Assembly (NCBI GenBank): GCA_965603595.1 | Contig: CBFDDP010000003.1 | Span: forward strand, 1,309 to 65,308 | Source: an uncultured bacterium | GTDB taxonomy: Bacteria > Spirochaetota > B62-G9 > DRHN01 | Direction of reading: 5' to 3' | Length of the DNA: 64,000 nt | Shown: positions 1 to 32,725 of the stretch, piece after piece | Position numbering within the stretch: position 1 is the first letter of the stretch | Layout: every line of letters begins with the position of its first letter | Notes under the pieces: generated by a model | Databases searched by the model: none | Seen by the model: the letters and a program-made list of their open reading frames with translations, nothing else | What the model was told of the DNA's origin: nothing | Program-made: the position numbers and the translations under genes

Positions 1-121
1 GTTCGCTTATCGGACATTTCAGGATTGTGTAGGAGAGGTTAAAGGGTAAGGTGTACGCTACTGGCATGTGACTGGGTTCCCGGCTGTACAGGGGACAGGT
101 GAGTTATGGAGCGAGGCGAAT

Positions 122-397
122 ATGAAACTCGGTAAAGTTATCGGCAACGTGGTCTGCACGCAGAAGGTCGATTCCTTCGAAGGGGTGAAGCTCCTCCTCG
201 TACAGCCCCTGGATGAGAAGCTGGAGAAGCAGGGTGATCCCCTAGTCGCCTGTGATACGGTGCAGGCAGGGCTCGGCGACACTGTTTTCTATGAAGGGGG
301 AAGGGAAGCTGCACTCGGCCTTGAAAACTGGTTCAACCCCTCCGACGCCACGATCATGGGAATTGTGGATGAAGTGGAGCTGGAGAAACTGACATGA
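122..397 (+). CDS. BMC vertex (pentamer) protein, EutN/PduN/CcmL family
   Basis: About 92 aa reading MKLGKVIGNVVCTQK...VQPLDE...ACDTVQAGLGDTV, typical of BMC-P. SD gGGAGcgagg lies upstream of the ATG at 122. The ORF-track start at 68 is rejected as an upstream extension. Confidence 0.8.
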   Translation: MKLGKVIGNVVCTQKVDSFEGVKLLLVQPLDEKLEKQGDPLVACDTVQAGLGDTVFYEGGREAALGLENWFNPSDATIMGIVDEVELEKLT

Positions 398-660
398 TTC
401 TGGGAAAGATTGTCGGCACTGTGGTGTCGACCATGAAGCTGAAGATATACGAGGGCTACAAGATACTCGTGGTGCAGCCCATACAGCCTGACGGTAGTTT
501 CAAGGGAAGCACTTTCCTTGCCATCGACACGGTGCAGGCTGGACCAGGCGATACGGTCATTGTCATTGATGAGGGAAACTCGGCACGGCAGATCATAGAC
601 AATAAAACCGCACCGGTGCGAAGCGTCATAGCCGGTGTTGTGGATGAGGTCAACATCTAG
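394..660 (+). CDS. Second BMC vertex protein, EutN/PduN/CcmL family
   Basis: 88 aa reading MILGKIVGTVVSTMK...VVQPIQPDG...AIDTVQAGPGDTV. Its ATGA start overlaps the stop of the previous gene, suggesting translational coupling. Confidence 0.8.
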   Translation: MILGKIVGTVVSTMKLKIYEGYKILVVQPIQPDGSFKGSTFLAIDTVQAGPGDTVIVIDEGNSARQIIDNKTAPVRSVIAGVVDEVNI

Positions 661-707
661 GATCACAGGGATGTGAGCTGTCAGAACATGGTTAGAGGAG
701 CAGGAGT

Positions 708-1262
708 ATGGCAGAGCAGGATTCGGGAAGTATCATACGAAACGTGGTGACCAGCATGCACACGGCAGACGTCACACCGCAACCCGAAGGTGAGGAGTTG
801 AACCTCAGGGACAATGTACGAAGGGTGGCGATCGGTGCAGATCATGGTGGCTATGAAGTAAAGGAAAAGATCAAAAGCTTTTTACAGACACTCGGATACC
901 ATGTAACCGATGTGGGAACTGACACTAAAGAGAGCGTCGACTATCCTGACTTTGCGGAGAAGGTTGCCAGGAAGGTTGCAAGCGGTGACTGCGACCGGGG
1001 TATTATGATAGATGGAGCGGGTATCGGCTCTTCCATGGCCTGCAACAAGGTGAAGGGCATACGGGCGGCCCTCTGCTACAATGTAAAAACCGTCATCAAC
1101 AGCAGGGAGCACAACAACGCCAATGTCCTCACCCTTGGAGGACCCCTTCACAGTGCTGAGGAGTTCTACGAAATGATAAAGATCTGGCTCAAGACCCGGT
1201 TTGCCGGTGGGAGGCACTGGCAAAGGGTAAACAAGATTATGGCGCTCGAGCGTGGGAGGTAG
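708..1262 (+). CDS. rpiB: Ribose-5-phosphate isomerase B (RpiB/LacAB family) with an N-terminal extension of about 40 aa
   Basis: The core reads VAIGADHGGYEVKEK...GIMIDGAGIGSSMACNKVKGIRAALCYN, as in RpiB. The leader MAEQDSGSIIRNVVTSMHT plus a linker precedes the usual MKIAIG-type start. Confidence 0.8.
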   Translation: MAEQDSGSIIRNVVTSMHTADVTPQPEGEELNLRDNVRRVAIGADHGGYEVKEKIKSFLQTLGYHVTDVGTDTKESVDYPDFAEKVARKVASGDCDRGIMIDGAGIGSSMACNKVKGIRAALCYNVKTVINSREHNNANVLTLGGPLHSAEEFYEMIKIWLKTRFAGGRHWQRVNKIMALERGR

Positions 1263-1265
1263 AAG

Positions 1266-2138
1266 ATGGATCAGCAGCAACTGATCGATAAAATCACCAG
1301 CGAGGTGATGAGTAAGCTCAATATCACGGAATGCACGCCTGTTTCTCCGGCAACTGAAGCAGTATGCCCGCCTGACTGTACGGGGTGTTACCTATGCGTG
1401 ACAAACAATCTCTCGGGTGTGAAAACCATACTGAACGGAGGTGCGAGCAGGGTATCGAGCACCATTGGTATTGTCAATGTTCCTGCCGACGTGGCTCAGT
1501 ACATCGACCACACCCTGCTGAAACCTGATGCAACGCAGGACCAGTTCGAACAGCTCTGCAACGAAGCAGTGGAGTACAGCTTTTATTCCGTGTGCGTCAA
1601 CTCCTACTGGGTACCCTTCTGTGCGAAGAGGCTCAGGGGTAAGAATGTGGCTGTGTGCTCCGTGATCGGTTTCCCACTGGGTGCCATGGACAGCAGGTCC
1701 AAAGGATTCGAAACGCGAAACGCCATAGAGAACGGCGCTTCTGAAATAGATATGGTGATCAATATTGGAGCACTGAAGTCGGGAAACCTCGATGCCGTTG
1801 AAAAGGACATACGCGCCGTTCGCAGGGCATGCAGGGCAACAACGTTACTCAAGGTTATCATCGAGACATGCCTTCTCACCGATGACGAGAAGGTGCTTGC
1901 CTGCGAAATATCCAAACAGGCAGGTGCGGATTATGTGAAGACCTCAACGGGATTTGCCGAGGGTGGTGCAACGGCGCACGATATTGCGCTCATGAAAAGG
2001 GTGGTTGGTTCTTCCCTGGGCGTTAAGGCGAGCGGCGGTGTACGCACCTTCGAGGATGCGAAGCTGATGATCGAGTCAGGCGCGACCCGTATCGGTGCCA
2101 GCGCAAGCGTGAAGATCGTATCGACCAGGGCTGCATAA
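1266..2138 (+). CDS. deoC: Deoxyribose-phosphate aldolase (DeoC/DERA) with an N-terminal extension of about 70 aa
   Basis: DeoC core from [12 protein letters not shown]...DYVKTSTGF...VKASGGVRT. The N-terminus [18 protein letters not shown] is amphipathic and is followed by a Cys-rich linker [23 protein letters not shown]. Confidence 0.8.
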
Positions 2139-2322: not shown

Positions 2323-3168
2323 ATGGCAAAAAAGATTGATCGATTGAGTGTTTGCATTGAAACGATTTTTCCCTACACGGTCCCATATGAAGAGCAGATC
2401 AGGACCTGTGCTGAGCTGGGGTTCAAGGCCTATGAGTTCTGGTATCACGATATGATGCGGGACGGGAAGGGCGGTTGGCTGGAGAAGGAAAAGGCAAAGG
2501 ATCTGGATGTTATACACCGGATGAATGGGGAACTGGACATGAAGCTCGTGACCTTTGCACTCAATTCACCGCACGCCGATCATGGCGGGAACCTGGTGAG
2601 TGACAGAGGTACGGATATGATGTTCAGGGAGCTCGACCGTCTCATCCCCATAGTACAGAAGCTTGGGGTTCTGCAGCTGATTACCTTCGTGGGAAAGGAG
2701 GTGCCGGGAGAGAAGCGCTCCACCCTGTTGAAGAGGATTGTCTCTTCTCTACGGAAGTTGGATAGTAAAGTCGAGGGAACGGGAATCATGCTGACAGTCG
2801 AGCCTCTGAGTCTGCCCAAGTACAAGGGATGTCTTCTGACCACGGTCAAAGAAACGGGCGATTTGCTTCGCGAAGTGGGGGGCAAAAATGTGAAGATGCT
2901 CTACGACGTGTTCCATGTACAGATTATGACGGGGAATATACTCGCCTCCCTGCAGGAGTACATCGAGTATATCGGACACATCCATATCTCGGGAATTCCG
3001 GGACAACACGAACTTGCCGAGGGCGAGCTCAACCTACCACTCATTCTCAAGAAGCTCGACGAAATGGGGTACAGGGGCTATTATGGGCTCGAGTACTATC
3101 CGCTGAAGGAGGTCGTTCCCTCTCTTCAGGAGACGATCGAATACCTGACAGATGTGGCGAGCTTCTAG
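2323..3168 (+). CDS. Sugar phosphate isomerase/epimerase (xylose-isomerase-like TIM barrel; Hyi/OtnI/EryC-like)
   Basis: 281 aa reading ...IHISGIPGQHELAEGELNLPLILKKLDEMGYRGYYGLEYYP, as in hydroxypyruvate-isomerase-like proteins. Confidence 0.7.
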   Translation: MAKKIDRLSVCIETIFPYTVPYEEQIRTCAELGFKAYEFWYHDMMRDGKGGWLEKEKAKDLDVIHRMNGELDMKLVTFALNSPHADHGGNLVSDRGTDMMFRELDRLIPIVQKLGVLQLITFVGKEVPGEKRSTLLKRIVSSLRKLDSKVEGTGIMLTVEPLSLPKYKGCLLTTVKETGDLLREVGGKNVKMLYDVFHVQIMTGNILASLQEYIEYIGHIHISGIPGQHELAEGELNLPLILKKLDEMGYRGYYGLEYYPLKEVVPSLQETIEYLTDVASF

Positions 3169-3231
3169 GTGCAGGTTAAAAGGGTATCAGGCTGAGTGCC
3201 GGATTATAGAGGTATGAGAGCGGAATCAACC

Positions 3232-4467
3232 TCAGCCATCCTTTCCAACGATATGCACGACATTGGTGGTCGCAGATCCCCCGATATTCAGTGTAGCAAT
3301 CCGTTTGGCTCCTGGAACCTGATAGTCTCCCGCCTTCCCGGTAATCTGCAGATAGGCATCGTAGAGCTGCCGTGTTCCGGTGGCACCAACTGGATGTCCT
3401 CCTCCTATGAGTCCTCCCGATGGATTTATGGGGCAGGAACCATCGAATCGGATGGTCCCCTCTTCGATAGCTTTCCAGCCCTCGCCCGGACTGGTGAGGC
3501 CAAAGTGCTCGATGGCTGCATATTCGGTAATGGTAAAGCAGTCATGGGTTTCAATACACGAAATATCCTGCACCCCGCGAATGTGTGCTCTCCTGAAAGC
3601 GTCGGTAAGAGCCTTTCTGGTATGGGGCAGCACGTATTCGTTGTGTCTAGCTTCTTCAGCTTTGTCGTCAAAACGGATGGGAGCTGTTCTGTGGCCCCAC
3701 CCCTGAATGAAAGGGATATGCGCGAGCTTTGAGCCCCGTTTCTTTGCATACTTCTGGGCATAGTCCTGGGAGGCAAGAATAATCGCAGCCCCGCCGTCAG
3801 TGACCTGTGAGCAATCCGATGCGCGGAGTCGTGTGCCAATTGTTCGGTTATAGTCCCCTACGCTGCACGCATGTTTTTTGTTCATGTACCAGCCTCTTGT
3901 TTGGGCTTTTGGATTTCTTTTGGCGTTTTCATAGTTGATGACTGCTATCTCTGCCAGATGCTCGTATTCCACACCGTAGAGTTCTTCGTACACATCGTAC
4001 AGCCGATCGAAAAGCTTGGGGAAGGGGAATTCTATACCCACACATTCCTTTTCATACCACGCTGCTGTGCCTAAATAATTACCACCGATTTTTGAATCTA
4101 CACCTTTCATGAGCTCAATACCCAGAACCACGATGAGATCGTAGATGCCGGCCTCGATTTCTGCCCGAGCCATGAGTGCAGCGATTGAACCGGATGCACA
4201 CGCAGCCTCATGGCGTGCGGTCGGGATACCCCGCAGGATTGAATCATAGTTCAGAGGAAATGAGCCAAGATGGGCCTGCATCATGTAAAGCTCTCCCGCG
4301 AAGTTTCCCACATGGATCGCTTGAATATCCTTTATATCAATTTCCGTGGTGTTTAAAGCCCCATCCATGATTTCATTGATCATTGCCTGAATGCCTTTTC
4401 CCTCTCTAGACCAGTTCCGGGCAAAATCCGTTTGATAGCCCCCAAGAATGTATACCTTTGACGGCAT
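3232..4467 (-). CDS. Thiolase-family protein (SCP-x / acetyl-CoA C-acyltransferase-like)
   Basis: 411 aa with an active-site Cys context AACASGS, plus HDCF and GGLIGGGHPVGATG near the C-terminus. Confidence 0.7.
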   Translation of the reverse strand: MPSKVYILGGYQTDFARNWSREGKGIQAMINEIMDGALNTTEIDIKDIQAIHVGNFAGELYMMQAHLGSFPLNYDSILRGIPTARHEAACASGSIAALMARAEIEAGIYDLIVVLGIELMKGVDSKIGGNYLGTAAWYEKECVGIEFPFPKLFDRLYDVYEELYGVEYEHLAEIAVINYENAKRNPKAQTRGWYMNKKHACSVGDYNRTIGTRLRASDCSQVTDGGAAIILASQDYAQKYAKKRGSKLAHIPFIQGWGHRTAPIRFDDKAEEARHNEYVLPHTRKALTDAFRRAHIRGVQDISCIETHDCFTITEYAAIEHFGLTSPGEGWKAIEEGTIRFDGSCPINPSGGLIGGGHPVGATGTRQLYDAYLQITGKAGDYQVPGAKRIATLNIGGSATTNVVHIVGKDG

Positions 4468-4501
4468 GTCAATTCTCCTTTTTACAGGTTTAAAATTTTT
4501 A

Positions 4502-5788
4502 TTAGTAAGCGATGAAAAACTTCGTCACCTCGGGTATCCGGCACTGCTTTCCTTCATCTGTACCCGCTAACTGATCGGGTATGGTAAATCCTGATTGCTC
4601 CAACAGTTTTATCGTTTCTTTTGGACCACCAAGAAAATCGACCCATGCGGATGGAGGAAGCCAGGAAAAGCCATAGGACATGACCCTGTCGATTCCATGA
4701 ATCCCGTCTTCTACCGGTGTTATTTCTCCGATACGTGTGTAGCTGTACGCGATATACCCCGCTATGAAATGCCTTATTATTGACATTGGTTCAGAAATAT
4801 CATTTTGAATCAGGGAAACAGCTTTTTTATATTCCCCGTCATGGATATGCAGTTTAATTCTCTCGATCGAATCGATCCTGCTGTTCTCCAGATGCTCATG
4901 TTCCAGGCTCGAGGGATTTATGACCAGCTTCTCCTTCCTTTCGTTGTATTGGTAAAATCCTCCCACTGGGCCACTTTTGAGGCCAAACATTTTTTTTTCG
5001 ATCATCCTCTGTACATAATCAGGTATACGGAATGTGTCGTGTCGTTCATCATTGATTTTCTCGTAAATGTTGTCAACAATGGCCTTATGCACATCGAGCC
5101 CAACCAGATCGATTGTTGTAAGGGGTGAAAGTGTCCTTCCAGTAAAAGGACCAAGAAGATAGTCTATTCTTTCAACACCGTACTTTTCTGCGTAAAGAGC
5201 TGCTTCATTCAGGAACTGAAAACCGATCCGGTTCCCCGCAAATCCCGGTTCATTGTAGGTTACAATATTTATCCTTCTCAAAACATTTTCACAGAATTCA
5301 TATACATCTTTCTTGAGTGTCGTAGTATTGCTCGGATGAAAGATGAGTTCATTGGCGAGTAATTTACCGGGGGGATTGAAAAAATGAACACCCATGAAAT
5401 GTGCCCTGAAATCATCACTACACTCCCGGGTCATGTCTTCAATTGACAGGCCCGAAGATATGGTGGATACAATGCTTCCCTTTTTACGGGAGGCGTCCAC
5501 TCTTTGATAGTAATCACGTTTCAGTTCAAGATTTTCAGCCACAGCCTCCATTATCCAGTCACAGTCAGGCAGTTCCTCTTCCAGGGACTCATAGGTTTTC
5601 GGAACGATATAGTCCCTGATCACGTCACTCCGCGCCTGTTTAACCGCATTTTCAATTCCTCGTTTAGCCTTTTCCATGGATCGTGCAAAGTATACACACC
5701 TGATACCTGCCTGAGCAAAAATACCGCCAGAAAGGGAACCCATGGTCCCGTTTGCTCCGAGAACGGACACTTTTTTAATTGCAATCAT
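4502..5788 (-). CDS. 3-hydroxyacyl-CoA dehydrogenase family protein
   Basis: 428 aa. The N-terminal Rossmann start is VSVLGANGTMGSLSGGIFAQAGI, followed by HADH-like C-terminal domains. Reads as an operon with the thiolase gene. Confidence 0.7.
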   Translation of the reverse strand: MIAIKKVSVLGANGTMGSLSGGIFAQAGIRCVYFARSMEKAKRGIENAVKQARSDVIRDYIVPKTYESLEEELPDCDWIMEAVAENLELKRDYYQRVDASRKKGSIVSTISSGLSIEDMTRECSDDFRAHFMGVHFFNPPGKLLANELIFHPSNTTTLKKDVYEFCENVLRRINIVTYNEPGFAGNRIGFQFLNEAALYAEKYGVERIDYLLGPFTGRTLSPLTTIDLVGLDVHKAIVDNIYEKINDERHDTFRIPDYVQRMIEKKMFGLKSGPVGGFYQYNERKEKLVINPSSLEHEHLENSRIDSIERIKLHIHDGEYKKAVSLIQNDISEPMSIIRHFIAGYIAYSYTRIGEITPVEDGIHGIDRVMSYGFSWLPPSAWVDFLGGPKETIKLLEQSGFTIPDQLAGTDEGKQCRIPEVTKFFIAY

Positions 5789-5818
5789 GTATATCCCCTT
5801 AATTGGGAATTGTTTTTC

Positions 5819-5899
5819 TTGACAATTTGTATTTGTATGATAAAATAAGACTTGTAATAATAGGATAATAGGATAATATGATTACATTGATTTTGTCAA
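5819..5899. promoter_or_regulatory. Divergent promoter/operator module, instance 2
   Basis: Plus-strand TTGACAA at 5819, then CTTGTAATAATAGGATAATAGGATAATATGATTAC, then a minus-strand TTGACAA (TTGTCAA on the plus strand) at 5893. Lies between the divergent genes 5788(-) and 5948(+). Confidence 0.45.
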
Positions 5900-5947
5900 T
5901 AGTTTTTCAGAACATAGCAGAGGGGATAATACTATCATAGAGGTTAT

Positions 5948-6709
5948 ATGTCCATGCAAAGACTGAGAGGAAAAACGGCAATTGTCACCGGGTCCAGCTA
6001 TGGCATCGGAAGGGGAATAGCGATTTTTTTTGCACAGGAAGGGGCGAATGTTGTTGTGAACTATTCGAAGTCAGAGGAAAAGGCACAACAGGTTGTTTCT
6101 GAGATTATAGAGGAAGGGTTAACAGCCATTGCCGTCAAGGCCGATGTTTCTCGATCAGATGAAGTAAAGAAGCTGATAGATACATGTGTTCGCAGCTACG
6201 GCAGGCTCGATATTCTGGTCAATAATGCGGGGATACTGCCATTCGGTTCCATTGAGGAGATAACCGATGATATTCTCGACAGGGTGTTCAAGGTGAATTT
6301 TTACGGTACATTCTACTGCTGCCGTGAAGCCGTTCCAATAATGAAGAAACAGAAGTATGGGAAGATCGTAAACATCTCATCTATTGCAGGTCAGCGGGGT
6401 GATCATACCACGGCAGCTTGTTACGGTTCTTCGAAAGGTGCCATGTCGGTGCTCACAAAATCGCTGGCACGGCAGCTCGGCCCATTCGGCATAAACGTCA
6501 ATGCAGTCGCGCCTCATGCAATCATTACCCCGATGATGGACTACTGGGGCGAGGATAAGAGAAATGAGATGATGGAAAAAATTCCAATTCGGCGACTTGG
6601 TACACCCCGTGATGTGGCTGTTGCAGTACTGTTTCTCGTGTCTGACGAGGCGGATTTCATCACCGGCCAGATCATCAATGTAAACGGCGGGTATCTCATG
6701 GATTCCTAG
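5948..6709 (+). CDS. SDR-family oxidoreductase (FabG-like)
   Basis: TGSSYGIGRGIAI glycine motif; YxxxK context; 253 aa. Confidence 0.8.
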   Translation: MSMQRLRGKTAIVTGSSYGIGRGIAIFFAQEGANVVVNYSKSEEKAQQVVSEIIEEGLTAIAVKADVSRSDEVKKLIDTCVRSYGRLDILVNNAGILPFGSIEEITDDILDRVFKVNFYGTFYCCREAVPIMKKQKYGKIVNISSIAGQRGDHTTAACYGSSKGAMSVLTKSLARQLGPFGINVNAVAPHAIITPMMDYWGEDKRNEMMEKIPIRRLGTPRDVAVAVLFLVSDEADFITGQIINVNGGYLMDS

Positions 6710-6737
6710 TGAAGCACAGGTGAGGAGATGGGCAGGT

Positions 6738-7289
6738 ATGAAGAATGAAAGACTGATAAAAGCTGCGTTCAACCGCGGGTTCGAGTACGAAAAAACCTAT
6801 CGCGGTTGCGCGCAGTCTACCGTAGCTGCTATTCAGGACACGCTTGGAATAAGGAACGATTTCGTATTTAAGGCAGCCAGCGGTTTTGCCGCAGGCTGCG
6901 GTATGCTCTGTGATGGAATCTGCGGTGGATATACAGGCGGCATCATGATGATGAGTTTATTCTTCGGACGACGACGTAATAAATTCGATAGTGATCGCGA
7001 AGAGAATTACCATTCTTTTCATATGGCAGGTGCGCTTCATGACAGGTTCATAATCGAGTATGGTACCGTGCTCTGTAAGGCAATACATGAAAAAATTTTC
7101 AGGCGATCATTCGATTTGTGGAATCAAGAGGAGAAAAACCAATTCGAAGAGGCGGGTGCACATATGGACAAGTGCACATCAGTGGTGGCACATGCCTCTG
7201 CGTGGTCCACTGAAATAATCCTGCAGGAGATCAATAAAGAGAAATTGGACGCACAGGATTTTTCATATCTTGTCCATCTGTCTGAATAG
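6738..7289 (+). CDS. C_GCAxxG_C_C family putative redox-active protein (paralog 1)
   Basis: Motifs GCAQSTVAA...GFAAGCG...CGGYTGG with conserved Cys. The ATG at 6738 follows SD GAGGAG with a 10-nt spacer. The GTG at 6720 is rejected. Confidence 0.65.
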   Translation: MKNERLIKAAFNRGFEYEKTYRGCAQSTVAAIQDTLGIRNDFVFKAASGFAAGCGMLCDGICGGYTGGIMMMSLFFGRRRNKFDSDREENYHSFHMAGALHDRFIIEYGTVLCKAIHEKIFRRSFDLWNQEEKNQFEEAGAHMDKCTSVVAHASAWSTEIILQEINKEKLDAQDFSYLVHLSE

Positions 7290-7453: not shown

Positions 7454-8242
7454 ATGGAAAAGACGGTGCAATTACAGAATGATTTTTTCATTGATAAGGG
7501 TAGCGCTGTACCGTACTATCATCAGCTGAAAATGTATCTCTTGCGTGAGATCGATTCCGGTAACTGGTCACCGGCGCTGAAACTCCCATCTGAGGCCGAG
7601 TTCTGTGAACACTTCGATATCAGTAGAACTGTTGTACGACAGGCGATCAAGGAACTGCAGAATGCGGGATACCTTTCGACCGAAAAGGGGAAGGGAACTT
7701 TTATCGCCCGTCCAAAAATCATTGAAGGGTTTGTACAGAGCCTCACAGGATTTTATGAGGAGATGGTCAAACGGGGATATAGCGTAACCACGCATATCCT
7801 GAAGCAGGAGCTTGCACCCGCATCACGAAACGTTGCAGAAGCCCTTGAAGTCGATATAAATACACCAGTCATAACACTCAGTCGTCTTCGCAAGCTCAAT
7901 GAAGAGCCTTCTGTGTATGTGACGACATATATACCACAAGGATTATGTCCTGAACTGCTTATAGCCGACCTGGAAAACAAGTCCCTCTACGCCATTCTGG
8001 AAAAGTGCGGGTGTGGTTTGATGATGCACAAGGGGCGTCGGTACATCAGTGTCAGTTTGGCAAATGAATACGAGGCATCACTGTTGAATATCGAAGTGGG
8101 ATCACCCTTGATCGAGCTCGACAGTGTTACCTATCTCAAGGACGGGAGGCCTCTCGAGTACTTTCACGCATTACACCGGGGCGATAGGACACGATTCGAA
8201 GTTGAGCTGATAAAGTTCCAACAACCCGATCAGGGCCAGTAG
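7454..8242 (+). CDS. GntR-family regulator, HutC subfamily (HTH plus UTRA domain)
   Basis: YYHQLKMYLLREIDSGNWSPALKLPSEAEFCEHFDISRTVVRQAIKELQNAGYLSTEKGKGTFIA. Confidence 0.85.
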   Translation: MEKTVQLQNDFFIDKGSAVPYYHQLKMYLLREIDSGNWSPALKLPSEAEFCEHFDISRTVVRQAIKELQNAGYLSTEKGKGTFIARPKIIEGFVQSLTGFYEEMVKRGYSVTTHILKQELAPASRNVAEALEVDINTPVITLSRLRKLNEEPSVYVTTYIPQGLCPELLIADLENKSLYAILEKCGCGLMMHKGRRYISVSLANEYEASLLNIEVGSPLIELDSVTYLKDGRPLEYFHALHRGDRTRFEVELIKFQQPDQGQ

Positions 8243-8278
8243 CGCTTTATCTCAATTGGAAGAGGGATAATTTATATC

Positions 8279-8340
8279 TTGACAAAAGGAGCAATTTGTT
8301 TATAATTGCCTGTAATTACAAGATAATAAGATTATATGAT
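8279..8340 (+). promoter_or_regulatory. Promoter/operator module, instance 3
   Basis: TTGACAA, then cCTGTAATTACAAG (a perfect 14-bp palindrome), then ATAATAAGATTATATGATTAC. Lies upstream of the E1-beta gene. Confidence 0.45.
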
Positions 8341-8382
8341 TACGTTATGTCAACCTATACCTTGTAGGAAAGTTGGGGCATC

Positions 8383-9372
8383 ATGCGAGAGATAACATAT
8401 GTAGAGGCAATCAATGAGGCACTCATTGAAGAGATGGAGCAGGATCAAAGAGTTTTCATATTCGGGGAGGATATCACCGTCGGATATGGCGGTGGAGGTA
8501 TGTTTGGAGCGACGAGGGGGCTCGTTGATCGCTTTGGATTGGATAGGGTCATCGACACGCCCCTTTCCGAGGTCGCGATAACGGGAGCTGCGCTCGGTGC
8601 CGCCATGGTGGGACTCCGGCCAATAGCGGAAATCATGTTCGGTGATTTTATCGCCATCATTATGGATCAACTGGTGAACAATGTCGCAAAGATGAGATGG
8701 GTGTTGAACGATGAGGTGGACGTACCCATCGTGTACCGGACCTCCTATGGGGCAGGAATCGGCGCAGGATTTCACCATTCACAGAGTTTCGAGGCATGGC
8801 TCGCTCACGTGCCCGGATTAAAGGTGGTCATGCCATCGGATCCCGCAGATGCGAAGGGTCTGTTGAAATCGGCCATCCGGGACAATGATCCGGTCATGTT
8901 CATGGAACACAAGCTTTTGTACAAGAGGTTGAGTGGCCCGGTACCGGAGGATGAGTATCTCATTCCTCTGGGTAAGGGTGATATAAAGAAAGAGGGCGAC
9001 GATGTCACCATTATTGCAACCGGAGCGATGGTTCGACGGTCTCTGGAAGCGGCAGAAGCTCTCGAGCAGAGAGGGGTATCTGCTGAGGTAATCGATCCAC
9101 GGACCATACAACCTCTTGATGAAAACCTTATTCTGAAGTCGGTTGAGAAAACCGGGAGGGCTGTCGTGGTTCATGAGGCGCCTGTATTCGGAGGCTACGG
9201 CGGAGAAATTGCAGCCATCCTTGCAGATAAAGCGATCGATTATCTGGATGGTCCTGTAAAGAGGGTTGGGGCTCCGTTCACACCCATACCGAACTGGATC
9301 AAAATGGAGGAATACTACCTTCCCAATGTTGAGAAGATTCTTGATGCGGTGACGGAAGTCATACAGTTTTAG
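8383..9372 (+). CDS. 2-oxoacid dehydrogenase E1 beta subunit (transketolase-like; PdhB/AcoB type)
   Basis: 329 aa with SYGAGIGAGFHHSQS and pyrimidine- and C-terminal transketolase-like domains. Confidence 0.85.
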   Translation: MREITYVEAINEALIEEMEQDQRVFIFGEDITVGYGGGGMFGATRGLVDRFGLDRVIDTPLSEVAITGAALGAAMVGLRPIAEIMFGDFIAIIMDQLVNNVAKMRWVLNDEVDVPIVYRTSYGAGIGAGFHHSQSFEAWLAHVPGLKVVMPSDPADAKGLLKSAIRDNDPVMFMEHKLLYKRLSGPVPEDEYLIPLGKGDIKKEGDDVTIIATGAMVRRSLEAAEALEQRGVSAEVIDPRTIQPLDENLILKSVEKTGRAVVVHEAPVFGGYGGEIAAILADKAIDYLDGPVKRVGAPFTPIPNWIKMEEYYLPNVEKILDAVTEVIQF

Positions 9373-9381
9373 GAGCAATCG

Positions 9382-10614
9382 ATGGTACAGATCAAGATGC
9401 CTGAGGCAGGTTTCAGCATTACAGAGGGAACGGTAATCGAATGGTACAAAGAAGTTGGGGACAGCATCAAAGAGGGAGAAAACGTGGTCTGCGTGGAGAC
9501 TGATAAGCTCGCAGTTGATATCCCGGCTGAAAGGAGTGGTGTGCTCAACGAAGTGAAGTACAGGGCGGGAGAGGTGGTGACTGTTGGTGAAGTGATGGGA
9601 ATCATGCTGGAGGGCGAGGAAAAACCGCCGGAAGCGGGGGATGAGGCTTTACCGAAGGCCGAAGCAGAGATTACCGGGGAATCAGTCCAGGTGAAGGAAA
9701 AAGCTCGGATGGAGGAGGGCAGAAAGATATCGCCTGCTGCCAAGGCTGTTGCACGGTCAAAGGGGATCGACCTTTCTCAGATAGTGACCGGCAGTGGCCC
9801 GCATGGCCGTATAGTGAAGCAGGATGTGATTGATTTTATTACACGGTATGATGTGGAGCGAAAAGAGACATTAGCGGCTCCAGCGGCTACGTCGAAAACG
9901 TCTGTTATGTCGACAGCCGGCGTCAAGCCCGGACAGAGGGTCGAATTTAAGGGCTGGAGAAAGGTCATTGCGGACCGCATGCTGGCCAGCAAGACCGAGA
10001 TACCACACTACACCATGTCCGTTGAGGCGGATGTCACCGAACTTTCGCACTTCATACAGCGTATACGCGAGCTGGAGGGTCTCAGAATCACATACCTCCC
10101 GTTTATGATGAAGGCCCTTGAGCACGGGATTCAGGAAGTGCCTATCGTCAATGCACATTGCGACGGAAAGGGTTTTACCGTTCTTGAAGAAATAAACATG
10201 GGTATAGCTATAGATCTTGGCGAGAAACTTCTTGTACCTGTGATCAAGGATATACGGAGCAAGTCCGTCCTTGAGCTGGTTGATGAGCTCGGGGTCCTGA
10301 TCAAAAAGACTCGGGACGAAAGGCTCGAACCTTCAGATGTGGAGGGTGGCACCATGACTCTCACCAACGTCGGGATGTTTCAAATCCATTCGGCTACGTC
10401 GGTGATACTACAGCCGCAGGTCTCGATCATCTATATGGGCACTGCACGGGAGGCCCCGGGAGTGCGGGACGGAAGGATAGAGATTCGTAAGAAGATGATA
10501 TGTGGTTCAACATTCGACCACAGGGTGGTGAACGGGGCTTCTGGAGGGAGGTTCCTCATGAAGGTAATGGAGTATCTAGAGGATATGGGGAGATTCGTTA
10601 TGCATCTCCGTTAA
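9382..10614 (+). CDS. Dihydrolipoamide acyltransferase E2 with a lipoyl domain
   Basis: The N-terminal lipoyl motif is VETDKLAVDIPAERSG. It also has a subunit-binding domain and a catalytic DHRVVNGASGGRF motif. Confidence 0.85.
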   Translation: MVQIKMPEAGFSITEGTVIEWYKEVGDSIKEGENVVCVETDKLAVDIPAERSGVLNEVKYRAGEVVTVGEVMGIMLEGEEKPPEAGDEALPKAEAEITGESVQVKEKARMEEGRKISPAAKAVARSKGIDLSQIVTGSGPHGRIVKQDVIDFITRYDVERKETLAAPAATSKTSVMSTAGVKPGQRVEFKGWRKVIADRMLASKTEIPHYTMSVEADVTELSHFIQRIRELEGLRITYLPFMMKALEHGIQEVPIVNAHCDGKGFTVLEEINMGIAIDLGEKLLVPVIKDIRSKSVLELVDELGVLIKKTRDERLEPSDVEGGTMTLTNVGMFQIHSATSVILQPQVSIIYMGTAREAPGVRDGRIEIRKKMICGSTFDHRVVNGASGGRFLMKVMEYLEDMGRFVMHLR

Positions 10615-10701
10615 CAGGCAAAGTTCCAGGAATGCGATGAAATCCTCGCAACAGTAACATGTGGAATAAACTGAAATGAAGGCGAAGGGGAGGAAAGGTC
10701 A

Positions 10702-11679
10702 TTGAAGCTATCTGCAGAAGTACAAAAAAGAATGATGTACTGGATGGTTCTGGGCAGGAAGATCGAGGAGACAATTACGCTGCTCTTCAAGGAGGGAAGG
10801 GTGCGCGGGCATCACCATCCAGGTATAGGCGTAGAGGGAATACACGTTGGCTGCTGTTATGATCTTAATCCCGCGGAAGATTATATAGTCCCCTCCCACA
10901 GGGGGAAGCTGCCTGAGCTTATGATGGGGCTGGACCTAAAATTTTTAATGGCAGGATACTACAATAAAAAGGAAGGGCTCGGGGGAGGACGGGTTCCCAC
11001 TGGGTCGCATATGTACGGTGATATGAGCAAACACATCATTCCGGGAACCGGCATTATCGGTTCACTCATACCTGTTGCAATGGGGGCTGGCCTCGGGTTG
11101 AAGGTAAAAAAGTCGAAGGGCGTGGCCATGACCTTTTTTGGGGATGGTGCTGCAAACCGCGGCGATTTCCACGAGGCTTTGAACATGGCGGCTGCCTTGA
11201 AATTACCCGTGGTGTTCGTGCTCCAGAACAACCGGTATTCAATTTCGGTGTCCGTTAAAAAATCGACGGGTATGGACCATCTGTCCGTGCGCGCAAAAGC
11301 CTACAATATACCCGGTGTCACAGTTGAGGGACGTGACGTGCTCGCCGTGTACAGAGAGGCTCAAAAAGCGATAAAACGGGCACGCGAGGGTGAAGGACCG
11401 ACACTCCTTGAAGGGATGTGGCACCGCTGGACAGGACATTCCATCAGCGATGGAGACATATACAGAACCGACAAGGAGAGACGGGAGGGTGAGAAGCAGT
11501 GCCCCGTTGTGACGTTCAAAAAAAAGCTCAAGGATGAAGGTTTGCTGACAGAGAGGGAGTATCACGATATGGAAAATCGTGCTGCAGAGGAAATAGAGGC
11601 AGCGATTCAGTACAGTGAGAAGGAATGCACCGATCCAGATCCGGCCGATATTCTCCGGGGCGTGTATTCAAGTACCTGA
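10702..11679 (+). CDS. 2-oxoacid dehydrogenase E1 alpha subunit (thiamine diphosphate)
   Basis: GDGAANRGDFHEALNMAA...VVFVLQNNRYSIS, plus a TGHSISDGDIYR loop. TTG start with an upstream GGGGAGGAAAGG SD. Confidence 0.8.
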   Translation: MKLSAEVQKRMMYWMVLGRKIEETITLLFKEGRVRGHHHPGIGVEGIHVGCCYDLNPAEDYIVPSHRGKLPELMMGLDLKFLMAGYYNKKEGLGGGRVPTGSHMYGDMSKHIIPGTGIIGSLIPVAMGAGLGLKVKKSKGVAMTFFGDGAANRGDFHEALNMAAALKLPVVFVLQNNRYSISVSVKKSTGMDHLSVRAKAYNIPGVTVEGRDVLAVYREAQKAIKRAREGEGPTLLEGMWHRWTGHSISDGDIYRTDKERREGEKQCPVVTFKKKLKDEGLLTEREYHDMENRAAEEIEAAIQYSEKECTDPDPADILRGVYSST

Positions 11680-11710
11680 AGGCGAATTCCGGAAGGACGT
11701 TTAAAGAGGT

Positions 11711-12505
11711 ATGGAACGAGAAGTTGAATTCAACGAGTACTATGGTATCGATAAGGAGAGCCCCGTACCCTACTATCATCAGTTGAAGGAGTTTATACGC
11801 GGTCAGATTGAGTCGGGGAACTGGTCGCCTAACTGGAAGCTGCCATCTGAGACGGCGTTCTGTGAGCGATTTGATATAAGCAGGACCGTTGTGCGCCAGG
11901 CGATCAAGGAACTGCAGAATGAGGGTTACTTATCTACAGCGAAGGGGAAAGGGACCTTCATTGCAAGTATAAAGATCACTTCTGGTTTCGTCGAAAATCT
12001 AGCCGGTTTCCACGAGGTATTTCAAAAACAGGGCTATAGAGTAACGACCAGAATTCTCAAGCAGGAGATCGTGCCGGCCCCCCCTATCATAGCTAAAACA
12101 CTGCATCTGCAGATTAACGCACCCCTCATATTCCTCAGCCGTTTACGGGAGCTCAATAACGAGCCCTCTGTGTATTCAGACAACTACGTACCGGAGGACC
12201 TGTGTCCTCGTCTTATCAATGTAAATATGGAGAACAGGTCCCTCTATGCCTATCTGGAGGAAGCCTGCGGTTTCGAGATCTATAAGGGGCATCGCTACAT
12301 CGGAGTAACACCAGCAAACGAATATGAAGCTTCACTGCTTGGTATTGCCGTGGGGTCTCCACTTATTGAGGTAGAGAGTGTGACATACCAGAGGAATGGG
12401 AGACCCCTTGAGTGTTTCCATTCACTTCACCGGGGAGACAAGACGCGGTTCGAGGTGAATCTACTGAAATACGAAAGTAAAGGGCATCCTGCATCATCGC
12501 AATGA
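11711..12505 (+). CDS. GntR-family regulator, HutC subfamily (paralog of 7454-8242)
   Basis: YYHQLKEFIRGQIESGNWSPNWKLPSETAFCERFDISRTVVRQAIKELQNEGYLSTAKGKGTFIA. Nearly identical HTH to the first copy. Confidence 0.85.
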   Translation: MEREVEFNEYYGIDKESPVPYYHQLKEFIRGQIESGNWSPNWKLPSETAFCERFDISRTVVRQAIKELQNEGYLSTAKGKGTFIASIKITSGFVENLAGFHEVFQKQGYRVTTRILKQEIVPAPPIIAKTLHLQINAPLIFLSRLRELNNEPSVYSDNYVPEDLCPRLINVNMENRSLYAYLEEACGFEIYKGHRYIGVTPANEYEASLLGIAVGSPLIEVESVTYQRNGRPLECFHSLHRGDKTRFEVNLLKYESKGHPASSQ

Positions 12506-12523
12506 CATTTCATATAAAGGTGT

Positions 12524-13654
12524 ATGAGAAAAATGACAGTGGAAAAAGACACGGGCAGCAGTGGGGGTGAAGATCTTCTGGTTCTAAGGGGCGTTTTGAA
12601 GAACTATGGGAGTGTTGAGGCATTAAGGGGAATCGATCTTGCTGCAAAGAGGGGTGAATGTCTTGTGATTCTCGGCCCATCCGGTGCGGGGAAGACCACG
12701 ACATTAAAAGTCATCGCCGGCCTTGAATCGGTAAAACAGGGTAAAATTTATTTCAATAAACGCATGGTCAACAACCTTGAGCCGAAGGAACGGAACGTAG
12801 CAATGGTCTTTGAGACCTATGCGTTGTATCCCCATATCACTGTGTACGAGAACCTTGCAAGTTCTCTTCGTGCCCTGCATATGGAGGAGAAAGAGATCGA
12901 GGACAGGGTACGAAACATTGCTACTATGCTGGGTATCTATCCCTTTCTCGACCGCAGACCCGGGTTTCTCTCCGGAGGGCAGAGACAACGTGTAGCGTTG
13001 GGGAGAGCTCTCGTTAAACCGGTTGATCTCTATCTCATGGATGAACCCATTGCACATCTGGACGCGAAACTTCGGTATCAGATGATCGGTGAGTTCAAGC
13101 ATCTGCAGGAGACGCTCAAGATATCGATTATTTACGTAACCCATGACTGGCGTGAGGCGATGAGCCTGGGTAACCATATCATTGTTCTCAATAAGGGGAA
13201 GGTTGAGCAGTATGGAACCAAGAAGGAGATTTTTAGACGACCCAGCAACACCTTTGTTGCACAAATCATCGGTGATCCTCCCATGAATCTGCTGCCGGGT
13301 ACTATATCAGACGAAAAGGAACAATCCGTATTTCGGGCGGGTGATATTTCATTGCACCTTGGAAAACAGCTTCAGGAGGGAAATGCCATTCTAGGAATCA
13401 GACCTTCGAAGATCCATCTTGCCACAACAACGGGCAATAACAGGATCTCGGCAGAGGTATATTCGTCAGGGAGGCATGGTATGAACACCGTTGTCTCCAT
13501 GAAAGTCGGTGATGAAATATTCAAGACCGAATTCAGGGGCCATCAGCAGTTTGAGATCGGACAGAATATCACGGTTCAGGTCGATTTGAATGGTGCGTGC
13601 ATCTTCAATGAAAATAAAAAACTCATAAGAGTTCTCGGGGAGAAAGATGGATAA
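12524..13654 (+). CDS. Sugar ABC transporter ATP-binding protein (MalK/UgpC-like with a C-terminal TOBE domain)
   Basis: Walker A GPSGAGKTT, signature LSGGQRQRV, and a C-terminal regulatory domain. Confidence 0.85.
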   Translation: MRKMTVEKDTGSSGGEDLLVLRGVLKNYGSVEALRGIDLAAKRGECLVILGPSGAGKTTTLKVIAGLESVKQGKIYFNKRMVNNLEPKERNVAMVFETYALYPHITVYENLASSLRALHMEEKEIEDRVRNIATMLGIYPFLDRRPGFLSGGQRQRVALGRALVKPVDLYLMDEPIAHLDAKLRYQMIGEFKHLQETLKISIIYVTHDWREAMSLGNHIIVLNKGKVEQYGTKKEIFRRPSNTFVAQIIGDPPMNLLPGTISDEKEQSVFRAGDISLHLGKQLQEGNAILGIRPSKIHLATTTGNNRISAEVYSSGRHGMNTVVSMKVGDEIFKTEFRGHQQFEIGQNITVQVDLNGACIFNENKKLIRVLGEKDG

Positions 13655-14744
13655 GCTCGTACTGGAGAAGGTGTACAAAAACTACGGTGAGGTAGAAGCG
13701 GTCAAGGACCTGTGCTTTACCGTGAAGGACAGAGAGTTCCTCACCATCGTGGGTCCTTCGGGCTGTGGCAAATCTTCGACCCTCCGAATGATAGCGGGGC
13801 TTGAGGTCATTACTGCCGGAAATATCCTTCTCGACGGAGTAAAGATAAACGGTATCAGAGCCCGTGAGCGGGACATTGCGCTGGCCTTTGAAAGCTATGC
13901 ACTATACCCCCACCTCACAACATACAAGAACCTGGCCTTTCCTCTTCAGACGAAGAAGGTGAGCAAGGGTGAGATTCGAGAGAGGGTGAAGTCCATTCTA
14001 TCGCTGCTTCATCTGGGGGACTACCAAAACATGAAACCCGGTGAGCTGTCAGGTGGACAGCAGCAGCGAATATCCCTCGGTCGAGCCCTTATCAGGGGTG
14101 CCTCGGTGTATCTGCTCGACGAGCCGCTTTCGCATCTTGATGCGCAGGAAAGGGTGGATCTCAGGGTTCAGCTGCAGAGAATTCAGAAGCTCAATGAGTT
14201 GACTTTCATTCTCGTTACTCATGATCAGCTCGAGGCACTTGCCATGTCCGATCGGATACTCGTCATGAATGAGGGTCGGCTGCAGCAGATCGGTACACCG
14301 GAAGAGCTTTACGATGATCCAATAAATCTCTTTGTCGCGGATTTTATCGGTGAGCCACCCATGAACTTTGCCTACGGGACGCTCGGGAAAAACGGAACCA
14401 GTGGGATTGCCGTACAGTGTGAGGAACGAAAATTTTCTCTATCCGAGCGGCTCATGTCCGGAAAGGATCTGTCCGGCTATTTGAACGAAAAGGTGGTACT
14501 GGGCGTCAGGCCCGAGTACATCCATCTCTGCAGGAAGAAGGAAGAGGGAGCGATTGAGGGGAGAATATACTCCTATGAGGACCTCGGGGAGACCGGATTC
14601 CTCATGGTTGTCTGCGACGGTGAAAAGTTTCTCATTGAGGTTGAAAGTGGTGTGCCCTACAAGATGCATGAAGAGGTGTCCTTTCGCTTTGAGGAGGAGC
14701 GGGTCTGCATATTTGCTGAATCAAGCGGCGAGCGAGTGCTGTGA
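13647..14744 (+). CDS. Second MalK-like ABC ATP-binding protein
   Basis: GPSGCGKSS; LSGGQQQRISLGRAL. Overlaps the previous gene by 8 nt. Confidence 0.85.
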   Translation: MDKLVLEKVYKNYGEVEAVKDLCFTVKDREFLTIVGPSGCGKSSTLRMIAGLEVITAGNILLDGVKINGIRARERDIALAFESYALYPHLTTYKNLAFPLQTKKVSKGEIRERVKSILSLLHLGDYQNMKPGELSGGQQQRISLGRALIRGASVYLLDEPLSHLDAQERVDLRVQLQRIQKLNELTFILVTHDQLEALAMSDRILVMNEGRLQQIGTPEELYDDPINLFVADFIGEPPMNFAYGTLGKNGTSGIAVQCEERKFSLSERLMSGKDLSGYLNEKVVLGVRPEYIHLCRKKEEGAIEGRIYSYEDLGETGFLMVVCDGEKFLIEVESGVPYKMHEEVSFRFEEERVCIFAESSGERVL

Positions 14745-17419: not shown

Positions 17420-18274
17420 ATGAAAAGAGATCTTCTCAAAGCAGGGGAGAGAGCGGGTGCGAAAGCTGCTCTGGCAGTGATGCGGTGGATTCTCATCGTT
17501 ATCGTGCTTCTCGCATTCCTCTTTCCCGTGTACTGGATTATTAGTGGGTCCTTCAAGGAGCTTGGCGAATTCTACACCCGCCCACCATCGATGATTCCGA
17601 AACAGTTAATGTTTGAGAACTTCAAGAACGCCCTGTCGGTACGAGGAACAAAGGGACTGATTGACAGCGCTATCATCAGCATAACCGTTACCATCATCAC
17701 GATGATTATATCGGTACCGGCCAGTTATTCGATTGCGCGGTACAGGCCGGGAGGGCAGCATATTTCTTTCTTCATTCTTTCCATACTATTCCTCCCACCT
17801 GTGATCGGGGTTATCCCTCTTTTTTTTATTTTTAAAACATTAAAGCTGCTGGACACCTATTTTGTATTCTTTCTGAGCTACATGTTTTTTAATCTGCCCT
17901 TCTGTATATGGATCATGAAGGGTTTCTTCGAGGACATACCCTTCGAACTGGAACAGGCGGCGATGGTTGATGGGCACAGCAGATTCAAGGTATTCTTCAA
18001 GATCGCGATTCCCCTTGCACGGGCTGGTATTGCGGTTGCAAGCCTCTTTGCATTTATATTTGCATGGAACGAGCTCATGTTCGCCTCGATATTCGGCAGA
18101 AATAACGTGCAGACATTGCCTCTGGCCCTGCAGGATTACATCGGGAGTACGGGTGTTGCGTGGGGCGAATTGTCCGCACTCGCCACAATCGCCGCTATTC
18201 CCGGCATACTGCTTGCGGTGTTTATGCAGCGGTATATCGTGCGTGGACTCACCTTCGGTGCGGTGAAGGGATAA
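17420..18274 (+). CDS. ABC permease (MalG/UgpE-like)
   Basis: Has the EQAAMVDGHSRFKVFFKIAIPL EAA motif. Confidence 0.8.
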   Translation: MKRDLLKAGERAGAKAALAVMRWILIVIVLLAFLFPVYWIISGSFKELGEFYTRPPSMIPKQLMFENFKNALSVRGTKGLIDSAIISITVTIITMIISVPASYSIARYRPGGQHISFFILSILFLPPVIGVIPLFFIFKTLKLLDTYFVFFLSYMFFNLPFCIWIMKGFFEDIPFELEQAAMVDGHSRFKVFFKIAIPLARAGIAVASLFAFIFAWNELMFASIFGRNNVQTLPLALQDYIGSTGVAWGELSALATIAAIPGILLAVFMQRYIVRGLTFGAVKG

Positions 18275-18304
18275 ACGATATCATCGTATATTGAGAGGTG
18301 AAAG

Positions 18305-19474: not shown

Positions 19475-19510
19475 CCTATTACAGGAAACAGGTATGTGAG
19501 GTGAAAAACC

Positions 19511-20140: not shown

Positions 20141-20161
20141 TGGTTCTCGAAAGATAGAGAC

Positions 20162-25775: not shown

Positions 25776-25793
25776 ATAAGCCCCCTTAATCAA

Positions 25794-27372: not shown

Positions 27373-27501
27373 TGAGGGAGATTCATTTCACTGTTCTTGA
27401 AATGGTATGCGGAAAAGTAATCTCTTTTCCGCATACCTTTTTTTCTGAAATCGTAATATCATGAACGATGCTCGTAAAGGGTTAAACAAGACAATGGGGA
27501 A

Positions 27502-28488: not shown

Positions 28489-28515
28489 TATTGATAGAGC
28501 AGAGGATGCATTTGC

Positions 28516-29466: not shown

Positions 29467-29489
29467 ATATGGGGGAGGTGCTTTAAGTC

Positions 29490-31037: not shown

Positions 31038-31112
31038 TCATGTATGGTATGCAACACATATCATAAGTATTTTCATAATGGCAAGTCACTTTAAAACGAG
31101 GATTGATTAATC

Positions 31113-31853: not shown

Positions 31854-31977
31854 CAGTCCTGGGCTTTGTAGCGGGTAACATGACATTGTCCAAATTTTTT
31901 GATATCTGCGCTGACTATAAAAGTGATGAATCTTTAAAACTAAACTGATCATTTGATGTATTCAGAGGAGATACAGG

Positions 31978-32688: not shown

Positions 32689-32725
32689 ACACTTTCCGGG
32701 TATGATATCGAGGGAGTGATACGTT

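Follow-up and report, generated by a model that had tools for sequence, protein, structure and literature searches.

Bacterial microcompartments (BMCs) of the sugar-phosphate-utilising (SPU) type are defined by loci that combine a pfam01791 and a pfam02502 protein with an aldehyde dehydrogenase (AldDh) and at least three BMC-P shell proteins (PMC4207490, PMC8217296, PMC11585597). The pfam01791 protein is the aldolase DERA (DeoC), and the pfam02502 protein is RPI, which has the RpiB fold. Such a locus is described here from the beginning of a 64,000-nucleotide stretch of DNA, referred to as the window, of an uncultured Spirochaetota bacterium (assembly GCA_965603595.1, contig CBFDDP010000003.1, positions 1,309 to 65,308 of the forward strand). 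Window positions 1-2138 very probably constitute the 3' end of an SPU2-type microcompartment operon with packaging and chemistry as in the published SPU scheme. The locus is of an already known kind and adds one more SPU2 case, found in an uncultured spirochaete; its only feature that is new against the literature searched is a four-cysteine module in the N-terminal part of DERA.

The subtype SPU2 was described from 53 loci, mostly of Bacteroidetes and Spirochaetes and additionally of Atribacteria and other candidate phyla (Sutter 2021 supplement, PMC8217296). According to the same supplement, the SPU2 shell consists of one or two BMC-H, a BMC-P triplet with an extra copy, a CcmP-like BMC-Tdp and a BMC-Ts. 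PduS occurs in roughly one in four loci and triosephosphate isomerase (TPI) or PTAC in few, and encapsulation peptides (EPs) were assigned to all AldDh, roughly one half of pfam01791 proteins and a third of the pfam02502 proteins (PMC8217296 supplement). Dwyer, Sutter & Kerfeld (2024) reported that all SPU DERAs possess an extension of ~70 residues with an amphipathic helix and that SPU RPIs have a typical EP (PMC11585597). In that study, the extension rendered full-length DERA insoluble in aerobic E. coli expression; its deletion solubilised the SPU6 enzyme, which in truncated form cleaved deoxyribose-5-phosphate in vitro, while targeting itself was not shown. SPU DERA and RPI formed a roughly 1:1 complex, and all SPU RPIs carried Asp in place of the catalytic Cys and had negligible ribose-5-phosphate (R5P) isomerase activity (PMC11585597).

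Gene content and assignment to SPU2

In the window, the pfam01791 DERA is encoded together with shell genes, deoC lying directly 3' of two PF03319 genes, and the pfam02502 RPI gene adjoins it. A pfam00171 aldehyde dehydrogenase belongs to the locus, as do four BMC-P in two adjacent pairs (the colour clades of the shell proteins were left aside in all comparisons). DERA has the ~70-aa extension with an amphipathic helix, and RPI has both the EP and the Cys-to-Asp exchange described for SPU enzymes (PMC11585597). The gene order on the related contigs L013 and L007 matches the SPU2 description, and the same order was found in five more SPU2 loci that were fetched through DERA homologues. The likeness extends to the enzymes (AldDh, pfam01791 DERA, pfam02502 RPI), the adjacent BMC-P pair beside RPI-DERA, the four BMC-P as a triplet with an extra copy, a CcmP/CsoS1D-type BMC-Tdp, a PduT-like BMC-Ts, the lack of PTAC, the N-terminal EP on AldDh and the affiliation to the Spirochaetes. 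The locus differs from most SPU2 loci in that it belongs to the minority with PduS/MNdh (about a quarter) and TPI (a few). Of the other subtypes, SPU1, SPU4 and SPU7 were ruled out as they lack BMC-Tdp and have PTAC, SPU5 as it lacks RPI and SPU6 as it lacks PduS. Among the species representatives searched, none belongs to the same species; a Spirochaetes metagenome-assembled genome (MAG) came closest, with a DERA that was 97% identical but DNA that was only ~80% identical. A sequence-only reading of the window had already proposed an SPU-type locus with tandem BMC-P genes followed by RpiB and DeoC, which agrees with the Pfam domains and with the SPU definition. It had also called the SPU type experimentally uncharacterised, a statement that is outdated since the characterisation of SPU6 DERA and RPI in 2024 (PMC11585597). 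The features of the locus within the window are as follows.

1-32, + strand: 3' end of the AldDh gene, last 9 codons (SLIGHFRIV) and stop; the translation of 3-32 is the C-terminus of a 473-aa PF00171 protein on contigs L008 and L013
122-397, + strand: BMC-P (pentamer/vertex protein), third of four in the locus, 91 aa; full-length PF03319 match, E = 2.3e-27
394-660, + strand: BMC-P, fourth of four, 88 aa; PF03319, E = 3.5e-24
708-1262, + strand: SPU-type RPI (RpiB fold), 184 aa with a ~38-aa N-terminal extension; PF02502 on residues 40-177, E = 2e-54
729-761, + strand: core of the putative RPI encapsulation peptide, residues 8-18, SIIRNVVTSMH; from hydrophobic moment and conservation
1011-1013, + strand: codon of RPI D102, at the site of the canonical RpiB catalytic Cys; from the alignment with 3HE8
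1266-2138, + strand: SPU-type DERA (DeoC), 290 aa with a ~70-aa N-terminal extension; PF01791 from residue 76
1272-1319, + strand: putative DERA encapsulation-peptide helix, residues 3-18; from the AlphaFold2 (AF2) helix, hydrophobic moment and conservation
1365-1469, + strand: four-Cys module of DERA, residues 34-68, beginning with C34-x3-C38-x2-C41-x2-C44; from the all-or-none Cys pattern in homologues
2164-2205, + strand: intrinsic terminator closing the BMC operon; hairpin 2164-2197, then CUUUUUUC

The genes are closely packed. The start ATG of the fourth BMC-P overlaps the stop of the third (ATGA), only 3 nt separate the end of rpiB from the start codon of deoC, and Shine-Dalgarno-like sequences precede the starts of these two genes (GGAGCAGGAG and GGGAGG). 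For the first BMC-P of the window, a GTG at 68 was considered as start and rejected in favour of ATG 122, from which the Pfam match is complete from residue 1 and which is backed by a ribosome-binding site and by the gene calls on 23 contigs. This BMC-P, the third of the locus, is 34-45% identical to the other three, and all four are mutually 34-48% identical. The terminator has a minimum free energy of -17.7 kcal/mol (z = -3.8; 0 of 200 shuffles folded as well), its hairpin being followed by a U-run. It was detected by RNA folding and was not picked up by a simple consensus terminator scan because its stem is interrupted.

The upstream part of the operon was read from overlapping contigs. The exact DeoC and BMC-P proteins are present on many metagenomic contigs, six of which (L001-L006) match the window at 99.7-99.9% identity along as much as 12 kb. 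Contig L013 is 100% identical to window 1-1126 and reaches 9.9 kb further upstream. On L013 and L007, a divergent DeoR gene is followed by BMC-Tdp (210 aa, CsoS1D_N match), BMC-H (106 aa), two BMC-P (99 and 95 aa), a PduS/RnfC-like protein (PduS/MNdh, 442 aa, with Complex1_51K, SLBB and Fer4_17), a tandem-BMC protein (the PduT-like BMC-Ts, 176-183 aa), TPI (264 aa), AldDh (473 aa, C-terminus ...SLIGHFRIV) and then the window genes. As shell genes and AldDh stand directly before the window genes in this order, the earlier expectation that shell hexamers and an aldehyde dehydrogenase would lie immediately upstream was right; window 1-32 encodes the C-terminus of AldDh, and L013 carries BMC-H, BMC-Tdp, BMC-Ts, BMC-P and AldDh. 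The AldDh N-terminus, MELTEQNIRAIVEQIVREV, is a canonical N-terminal EP with a hydrophobic moment of 0.73. PduS of L013 contains the Cys motifs CCQCTYCTELCP and CSGCGLC, and BMC-Ts carries the PduT pore motif ICPGKF (CPGK). With its Complex1_51K-bearing PduS, the two Cys motifs and the CPGK-type BMC-Ts, the part upstream of the window encodes the MNdh/BMC-T(SE) pair of a putative electron relay, which has been proposed to recycle NAD+ electrochemically (PMC11275729).

N-terminal extensions and active sites of DERA and RPI

Solved RpiB structures aligned with RPI only from residues 35-39 and solved DERA structures with DERA only from residues 73-77 (span 75-286, E = 2e-80), and the extensions were therefore set at ~38 and ~70 aa. 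The DERA helix MDQxELIExITxEVMxKL is conserved in 84 DERA homologues, with L6, I10, T11, E13 and V14 in at least 90% of them, and DERAs of Anaerolineae, Acidobacteriota, Myxococcota and other groups have similar helices in front of them. In RPI, both the length and the sequence of the extension are kept in 23 homologues with identities down to 65%, I9 being nearly invariant and N12 invariant (alignment A2). Both extensions are kept in BMC-linked orthologues down to about 50-65% identity. DERAs away from shell genes do not have the extension, for instance those of Streptococcus and Lysinibacillus, which are among the 14 genome loci with neither a Cys-bearing extension nor nearby shell genes. 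The hydrophobic moment was 0.58 for DERA 4-14, a value reached by 126 of 5000 shuffles (2.5%), and 0.57 for RPI 8-18 (189 of 5000 shuffles, 3.8%). AF2, run on the 84-sequence alignment, predicted a helix for DERA residues 3-18 with a predicted local distance difference test (pLDDT) score of 60-71. A reading of both N-termini as signal peptides was rejected because they are net acidic and without a hydrophobic run of 5 or more residues.

As terminal amphipathic helices of ~10-20 aa that lie apart from the catalytic domain and occur only in BMC-associated homologues, the two N-termini are supported as candidate EPs, which would mediate encapsulation of DERA and RPI. The sequence-only reading, which had given 40 and 70 aa for the extensions, compares well with the Pfam and PDB alignment starts. 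The helix peptides it had quoted are present (SIIRNVVTSM at RpiB 8-17 and the DeoC peptide at residues 4-18), and its view of the extensions as amphipathic, conserved in orthologues and distinct from signal peptides is in line with hydrophobic moments, alignments and charge. The second DeoC of the window (31978-32688), to which it had pointed for comparison as extension-less, indeed has no extension; it comprises 236 aa and is 39% identical. This second gene lies in a ribose-type ABC-transporter/GntR operon (26128-33919) beside an Fe-alcohol dehydrogenase, and the two look like a cytosolic pair of aldolase and alcohol dehydrogenase.

The N-terminal 18-residue stretch of the BMC-linked DERA is close to the N-termini of EutC and EutE. 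As in the EPs of PduP, PduD, EutC and EutE (Fan et al. 2010; Aussignargues et al. 2015, PMC4594438), the very N-terminus of DERA is a short amphipathic helix in which hydrophobic residues are paired, and a spacer comes after it. DERA differs from them in having a conserved four-Cys module behind the helix and not only a poorly conserved linker, and binding to shell or core is putative here.

With regard to the active sites, the RPI segment IMIDGAG aligns with IVICGTG of the C. thermocellum RpiB 3HE8, which places D102 at the catalytic Cys; D102 is invariant in alignment A2. D162, K225 and K254 of DERA are invariant in the 84 sequences and, judged by their spacing, probably correspond to the catalytic triad in Fig. 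2 of PMC11585597. The pair resembles SPU6 DERA and RPI of Chloroflexi bacterium GWB2_54_36 in the ~70-aa DERA extension, its amphipathic helix and the conserved triad as well as in the N-terminal EP of RPI, its Asp for the catalytic Cys and the adjacency of both genes. The window DERA is ~51-55% identical to Anaerolineae (SPU6-type) DERAs and differs from them in its Cys spacing (C-x3-C-x2-C-x2-C versus C-x3-C-x4-C-x3-C). The RPI linker has ~20 aa in the window compared to ~75 aa reported for SPU6, and SPU6 loci further differ by lacking PduS and by an AldDh with a C-terminal EP.

Proposed pathway and substrate

In the proposed scheme, the N-terminal amphipathic helices of DERA and RPI would target both proteins into the organelle core or to the shell, like the EP of AldDh. 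DERA would release acetaldehyde inside the shell, and AldDh would turn the trapped acetaldehyde into acetyl-CoA and NADH. The latter may be re-oxidised by PduS/MNdh, with electrons leaving via the Fe-S pore of the CPGK BMC-T. TPI could interconvert glyceraldehyde-3-phosphate (GAP) and dihydroxyacetone phosphate (DHAP), and GAP, or DHAP made by TPI, would exit the shell, while acetyl-CoA probably exits through BMC-Tdp, PTAC being absent (PMC11585597). RPI, with Asp for the catalytic Cys, is probably a DERA-binding packaging partner and not an R5P isomerase. The gene content, the domain boundaries, the conservation and amphipathicity of the extensions, the Cys-to-Asp exchange, the CPGK and Fer4 motifs and the terminator, on which this scheme builds, were observed at the locus. 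From the literature on homologues, the activity of DERA, the inactivity of RPI, the complex of the two and the MNdh/BMC-T relay would carry over.

Several points weigh against this scheme. For this subtype and organism we infer encapsulation, native substrate and direction of flux, and the upstream genes likewise come from overlapping contigs of other samples, one of them 100% identical over 1126 nt. The TPI of the locus shows no clear EP. In addition, the conserved neighbours, namely an FGGY kinase, DeoR, an AP_endonuc_2 TIM barrel and an acetoin-type dehydrogenase, hint that another sugar may be the substrate. Instead of mainly degrading deoxyribose-5-phosphate derived from DNA, the organelle might handle another sugar phosphate that is provided by the neighbouring kinase/isomerase genes, or DERA might run in the condensing direction, which we regard as possible but rather doubtful. 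A substrate beyond or besides deoxyribose is hinted at because the AP_endonuc_2, FGGY kinase and DeoR neighbours are conserved: FGGY kinase and DeoR stand beside the locus in L013, L007, L095 and L096, and the sugar-isomerase-like AP_endonuc_2 gene follows it. SPU RPI is inactive on R5P and is hard to place in a deoxyribose-phosphate pathway (PMC11585597), and no deoA, deoB or deoD was found among ~40 window open reading frames (ORFs) scanned up to position 45604. However, nucleoside-salvage genes may sit elsewhere in the genome, outside the sequence examined. The catalytic residues of DERA are invariant, its core closely resembles genuine DERAs (E = 2e-80), and the in vitro cleavage of deoxyribose-5-phosphate by SPU6 DERA (PMC11585597) also argues for the deoxyribose-phosphate route.

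Four-Cys module of DERA

The sequence-only reading had noticed five Cys within 22 residues of the DERA extension. The number of Cys stands (residues 23, 34, 38, 41 and 44), and the stretch, residues 23-45, is 23 residues long. Its interpretation as an EP linker did not hold, as four of the Cys form a conserved, optional module that is joined to the DERA barrel, and C23 is not conserved. The motif C-x3-7-C-x2-C-x2-C, followed by GGASRV, is present in 78 of 119 close homologues. Eight of these 78 have an extra upstream Cys, which in seven shares the position of C23 in the window (x10 spacing). Extensions of 38 homologues contain no Cys and three contain a single unrelated one, while two or three Cys were found in none of the 119. 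The CxxCxxC spacing is fixed among the close homologues, and behind the four Cys come a conserved V-[TS] stretch and an invariant pattern of V, I, G and A. In other phyla, four Cys are kept with altered spacing, namely C-x3-C-x4-C-x3-C in Anaerolineae and C-x2-C-x3-C-x3-C or C-x-C-x4-C-x3-C in others, and (A/G)GAxR(V/L/I) follows the motif in most Cys-bearing sequences. A few Anaerolineae (SPU6) DERAs have Val at both middle Cys positions.

A profile of the module gave only 41 matches among 1.84 billion representatives. The matches inspected by Pfam scan or sequence (two very long multi-stretch matches were left out) were DERA N-termini, N-terminal fragments and fusions with the sole exception of P0256, which consists of ankyrin repeats; a mobile domain that also occurs on other proteins was rejected on these grounds. 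The fusions (P0244, P0269, P0266 and P0279) are of two types, EP helix-PF02441 flavoprotein-four-Cys module-DERA and RPI-helix-four-Cys module-DERA, and in both the module is internal and directly precedes the barrel. Since nearly all inspected profile matches are DERAs and the module directly precedes the barrel, fusions included, it is part of the DERA N-terminal domain and not a free linker. The flavoprotein-DERA type is similar to Flav+DERA, which was reported from Hodarchaeales microcompartments (PMC12747264).

The module is reminiscent of the ferredoxin motif CxxCxxCxxxCP, as it reads CxxCxxC-V-T-x-N-P, with the last Cys replaced by Asn and, in the window protein, Pro by Leu. It differs from the Fer4 type in that its fourth Cys is located 3-7 residues upstream. 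Searched against PDB sequences, the module profile matched mostly 4Fe-4S proteins at the top (6cfw_N with E = 0.003, PscB, PsaC), all with E >=0.003. The window DERA had no Pfam Fer4-clan match at the gathering threshold, and two homologues had sub-threshold matches to Fer4_21 and Fer4 (E = 0.004 and 0.014; 17.8 and 15.6 bits versus cut-offs of 35 and 21.1). An hhalign comparison of the module with the Fer4 region of the PduS of the same locus gave a probability of 9.9%. Membership in Fer4 was rejected on these values, which leaves a resemblance of motif only.

Presence of the module did not correlate with the Fe-S state of PduS and PduT among six SPU2 loci. The module is present and PduS and PduT are intact in L013, L007 and L096. 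It is also present in L095, where the BMC-T pore Cys is replaced by Asn (VNPGK) and both Cys motifs of PduS are retained. In L099 and L100 the module is missing and PduS and PduT are intact, and L098 (4457-6318) lacks it and has degenerate PduS and PduT, the first PduS Cys motif included. Among 80 genome loci, 35 of 43 BMC-linked ones combined at least three Cys with no PduS within 10 kb, as judged by tblastn, which could miss a diverged PduS. As an observation apart from the module, the parts of the electron relay seem to erode independently of each other (L095 6017-6571, L098 4457-6318).

In the SPU literature searched, the four-Cys motif is not discussed; 'cysteine' in PMC11585597 refers to RPI only, and the Sutter 2021 supplement is silent on it for SPU pfam01791. 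Four-Cys extensions were described elsewhere, namely at the C-termini of a GRM6 BMC-H and a MIC6 FAD oxidoreductase and as a ~40-aa domain of AldDh, for which the authors suggested metal binding (PMC8217296 supplement). Compared by description only, they resemble the DERA module as small modules that occur only on BMC-associated versions of a protein. Unlike the DERA module, they are C-terminal and located on other proteins.

Judging from the sequences, the module appears to be an optional four-ligand site that is most likely stabilised by a metal, whichever it may be, and we favour this view with modest confidence. As our best guess, it is a knuckle within the DERA N-terminal domain that is optional and stabilised by a metal (Fe-S or Zn); we read it as not required for the core pathway. 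Low confidence of the AF2 model (pLDDT <50 for residues 42-74, 84-sequence alignment) weighs against a knuckle and would fit a flexible Cys-rich linker between EP helix and DERA, without cofactor or fold of its own, as would the 38 Cys-free homologues, which carry a low-complexity linker instead in otherwise identical SPU2 loci. Such a linker is nevertheless quite improbable: the Cys are all or none, the CxxCxxC spacing and the pattern behind it are fixed, distant phyla keep four Cys at different spacing, and the segment stays on the barrel in the flavoprotein-DERA and RPI-DERA fusions, where it is internal, while true EP linkers are poorly conserved (PMC11585597).

A more specific idea, which can be put forward tentatively, is that C34, C38, C41 and C44 form an unnoticed Fe-S mini-domain that is widespread in SPU aldolases and either descends from a ferredoxin half-motif or converged on one. 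Binding of a [4Fe-4S] cluster would make DERA part of the organelle redox chain or a sensor for O2 or redox state that controls cargo assembly. The ferredoxin-like C-x(n)-CxxCxxC-VTxNP, the mostly 4Fe-4S matches in the PDB, the weak Fer4_21 and Fer4 matches of two homologues and the flavoprotein domain fused upstream of the module in some homologues would agree with such a role, and SPU6, which is without both known NAD+ recycling systems (PMC11275729), mostly keeps the four Cys. This role is nonetheless doubtful, as all similarities stay below family thresholds, the window sequence has no Pfam match and the hhalign probability is low. Furthermore, the Fe-S state of PduS and PduT shows no relation to the presence of the module in the six SPU2 loci, some SPU6 DERAs have Val for the two middle Cys, and an aldolase needs no redox chemistry.

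Neighbouring genes and related loci

Behind the BMC terminator, window 2323-3168 encodes an AP_endonuc_2 protein (xylose-isomerase-like TIM barrel). On related contigs (L013 1337-3697; L095 1-2682), genes for an FGGY sugar kinase and a divergent DeoR regulator lie in front of the locus. Immediately downstream of the operon, convergent genes for a thiolase-like protein and a 3-hydroxyacyl-CoA dehydrogenase (3232-5788, - strand) are kept on L007. Window 7454-12505 encodes E1-beta, E2 and E1-alpha of a 2-oxoacid (possibly acetoin-type) dehydrogenase complex and is flanked by two GntR/UTRA regulators. This complex may be linked to the organelle through acetaldehyde/acetyl-CoA chemistry because it recurs beside the SPU2 loci in L095, L097 and L099.

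Three paralogous C_GCAxxG_C_C 'putative redox-active protein' genes are distributed among sugar-catabolism operons of the window (6720-7289; 25143-25793, - strand; 39143-39829), and another one is located near the SPU2 locus on L100. The FGGY kinase at 33983-35076 seems to be broken and is possibly a pseudogene, as a 247-aa ORF matches only the end of FGGY_N and FGGY_C, with another ORF of 77 aa upstream of it. An ABC ATPase, an ABC-2 permease, ABC_transp_aux and DUF4340 (20162-25045) form a GldG-like cluster of the accessory-transporter type that is unrelated to the BMC.

In L097 (CP070841, a Spirochaetota MAG), an IS21-type element (rve transposase and IstB, 2767-6377) takes the place of the 5' half of the SPU2 locus, and the remainder consists of a truncated TPI, AldDh, two BMC-P, a short RPI and a Cys-free DERA. 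This organelle locus appears to be decaying because the insertion element replaces its 5' half and leaves truncated remnants. Two unusual fusions are encoded directly downstream of the SPU2 DERA in L095, namely a 959-aa fusion of aldehyde:ferredoxin oxidoreductase and Fe-alcohol dehydrogenase (10986-13865) and a 704-aa fusion of PTA and acetate kinase (18074-20188). They would handle aldehyde and acetyl-CoA outside the shell.

Implications

The value of the locus lies in its being a clean example, with a complete operon end, a terminator and a fully recoverable gene order. Should the four-Cys module bind a metal or Fe-S cluster, this could explain the insolubility of full-length DERA, would point to anaerobic or reconstituted purification and would bring a redox element into models of how SPU organelles assemble; otherwise, the finding is an ordinary one. 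If the module is an Fe-S site, one of the commonest microcompartment types would have a metalloprotein as its signature enzyme, and the packaging of DERA or a role in electron transfer would respond to redox state or oxygen. It could then also bear on NAD+ recycling in SPU6 organelles, which have neither PduS nor alcohol dehydrogenase.

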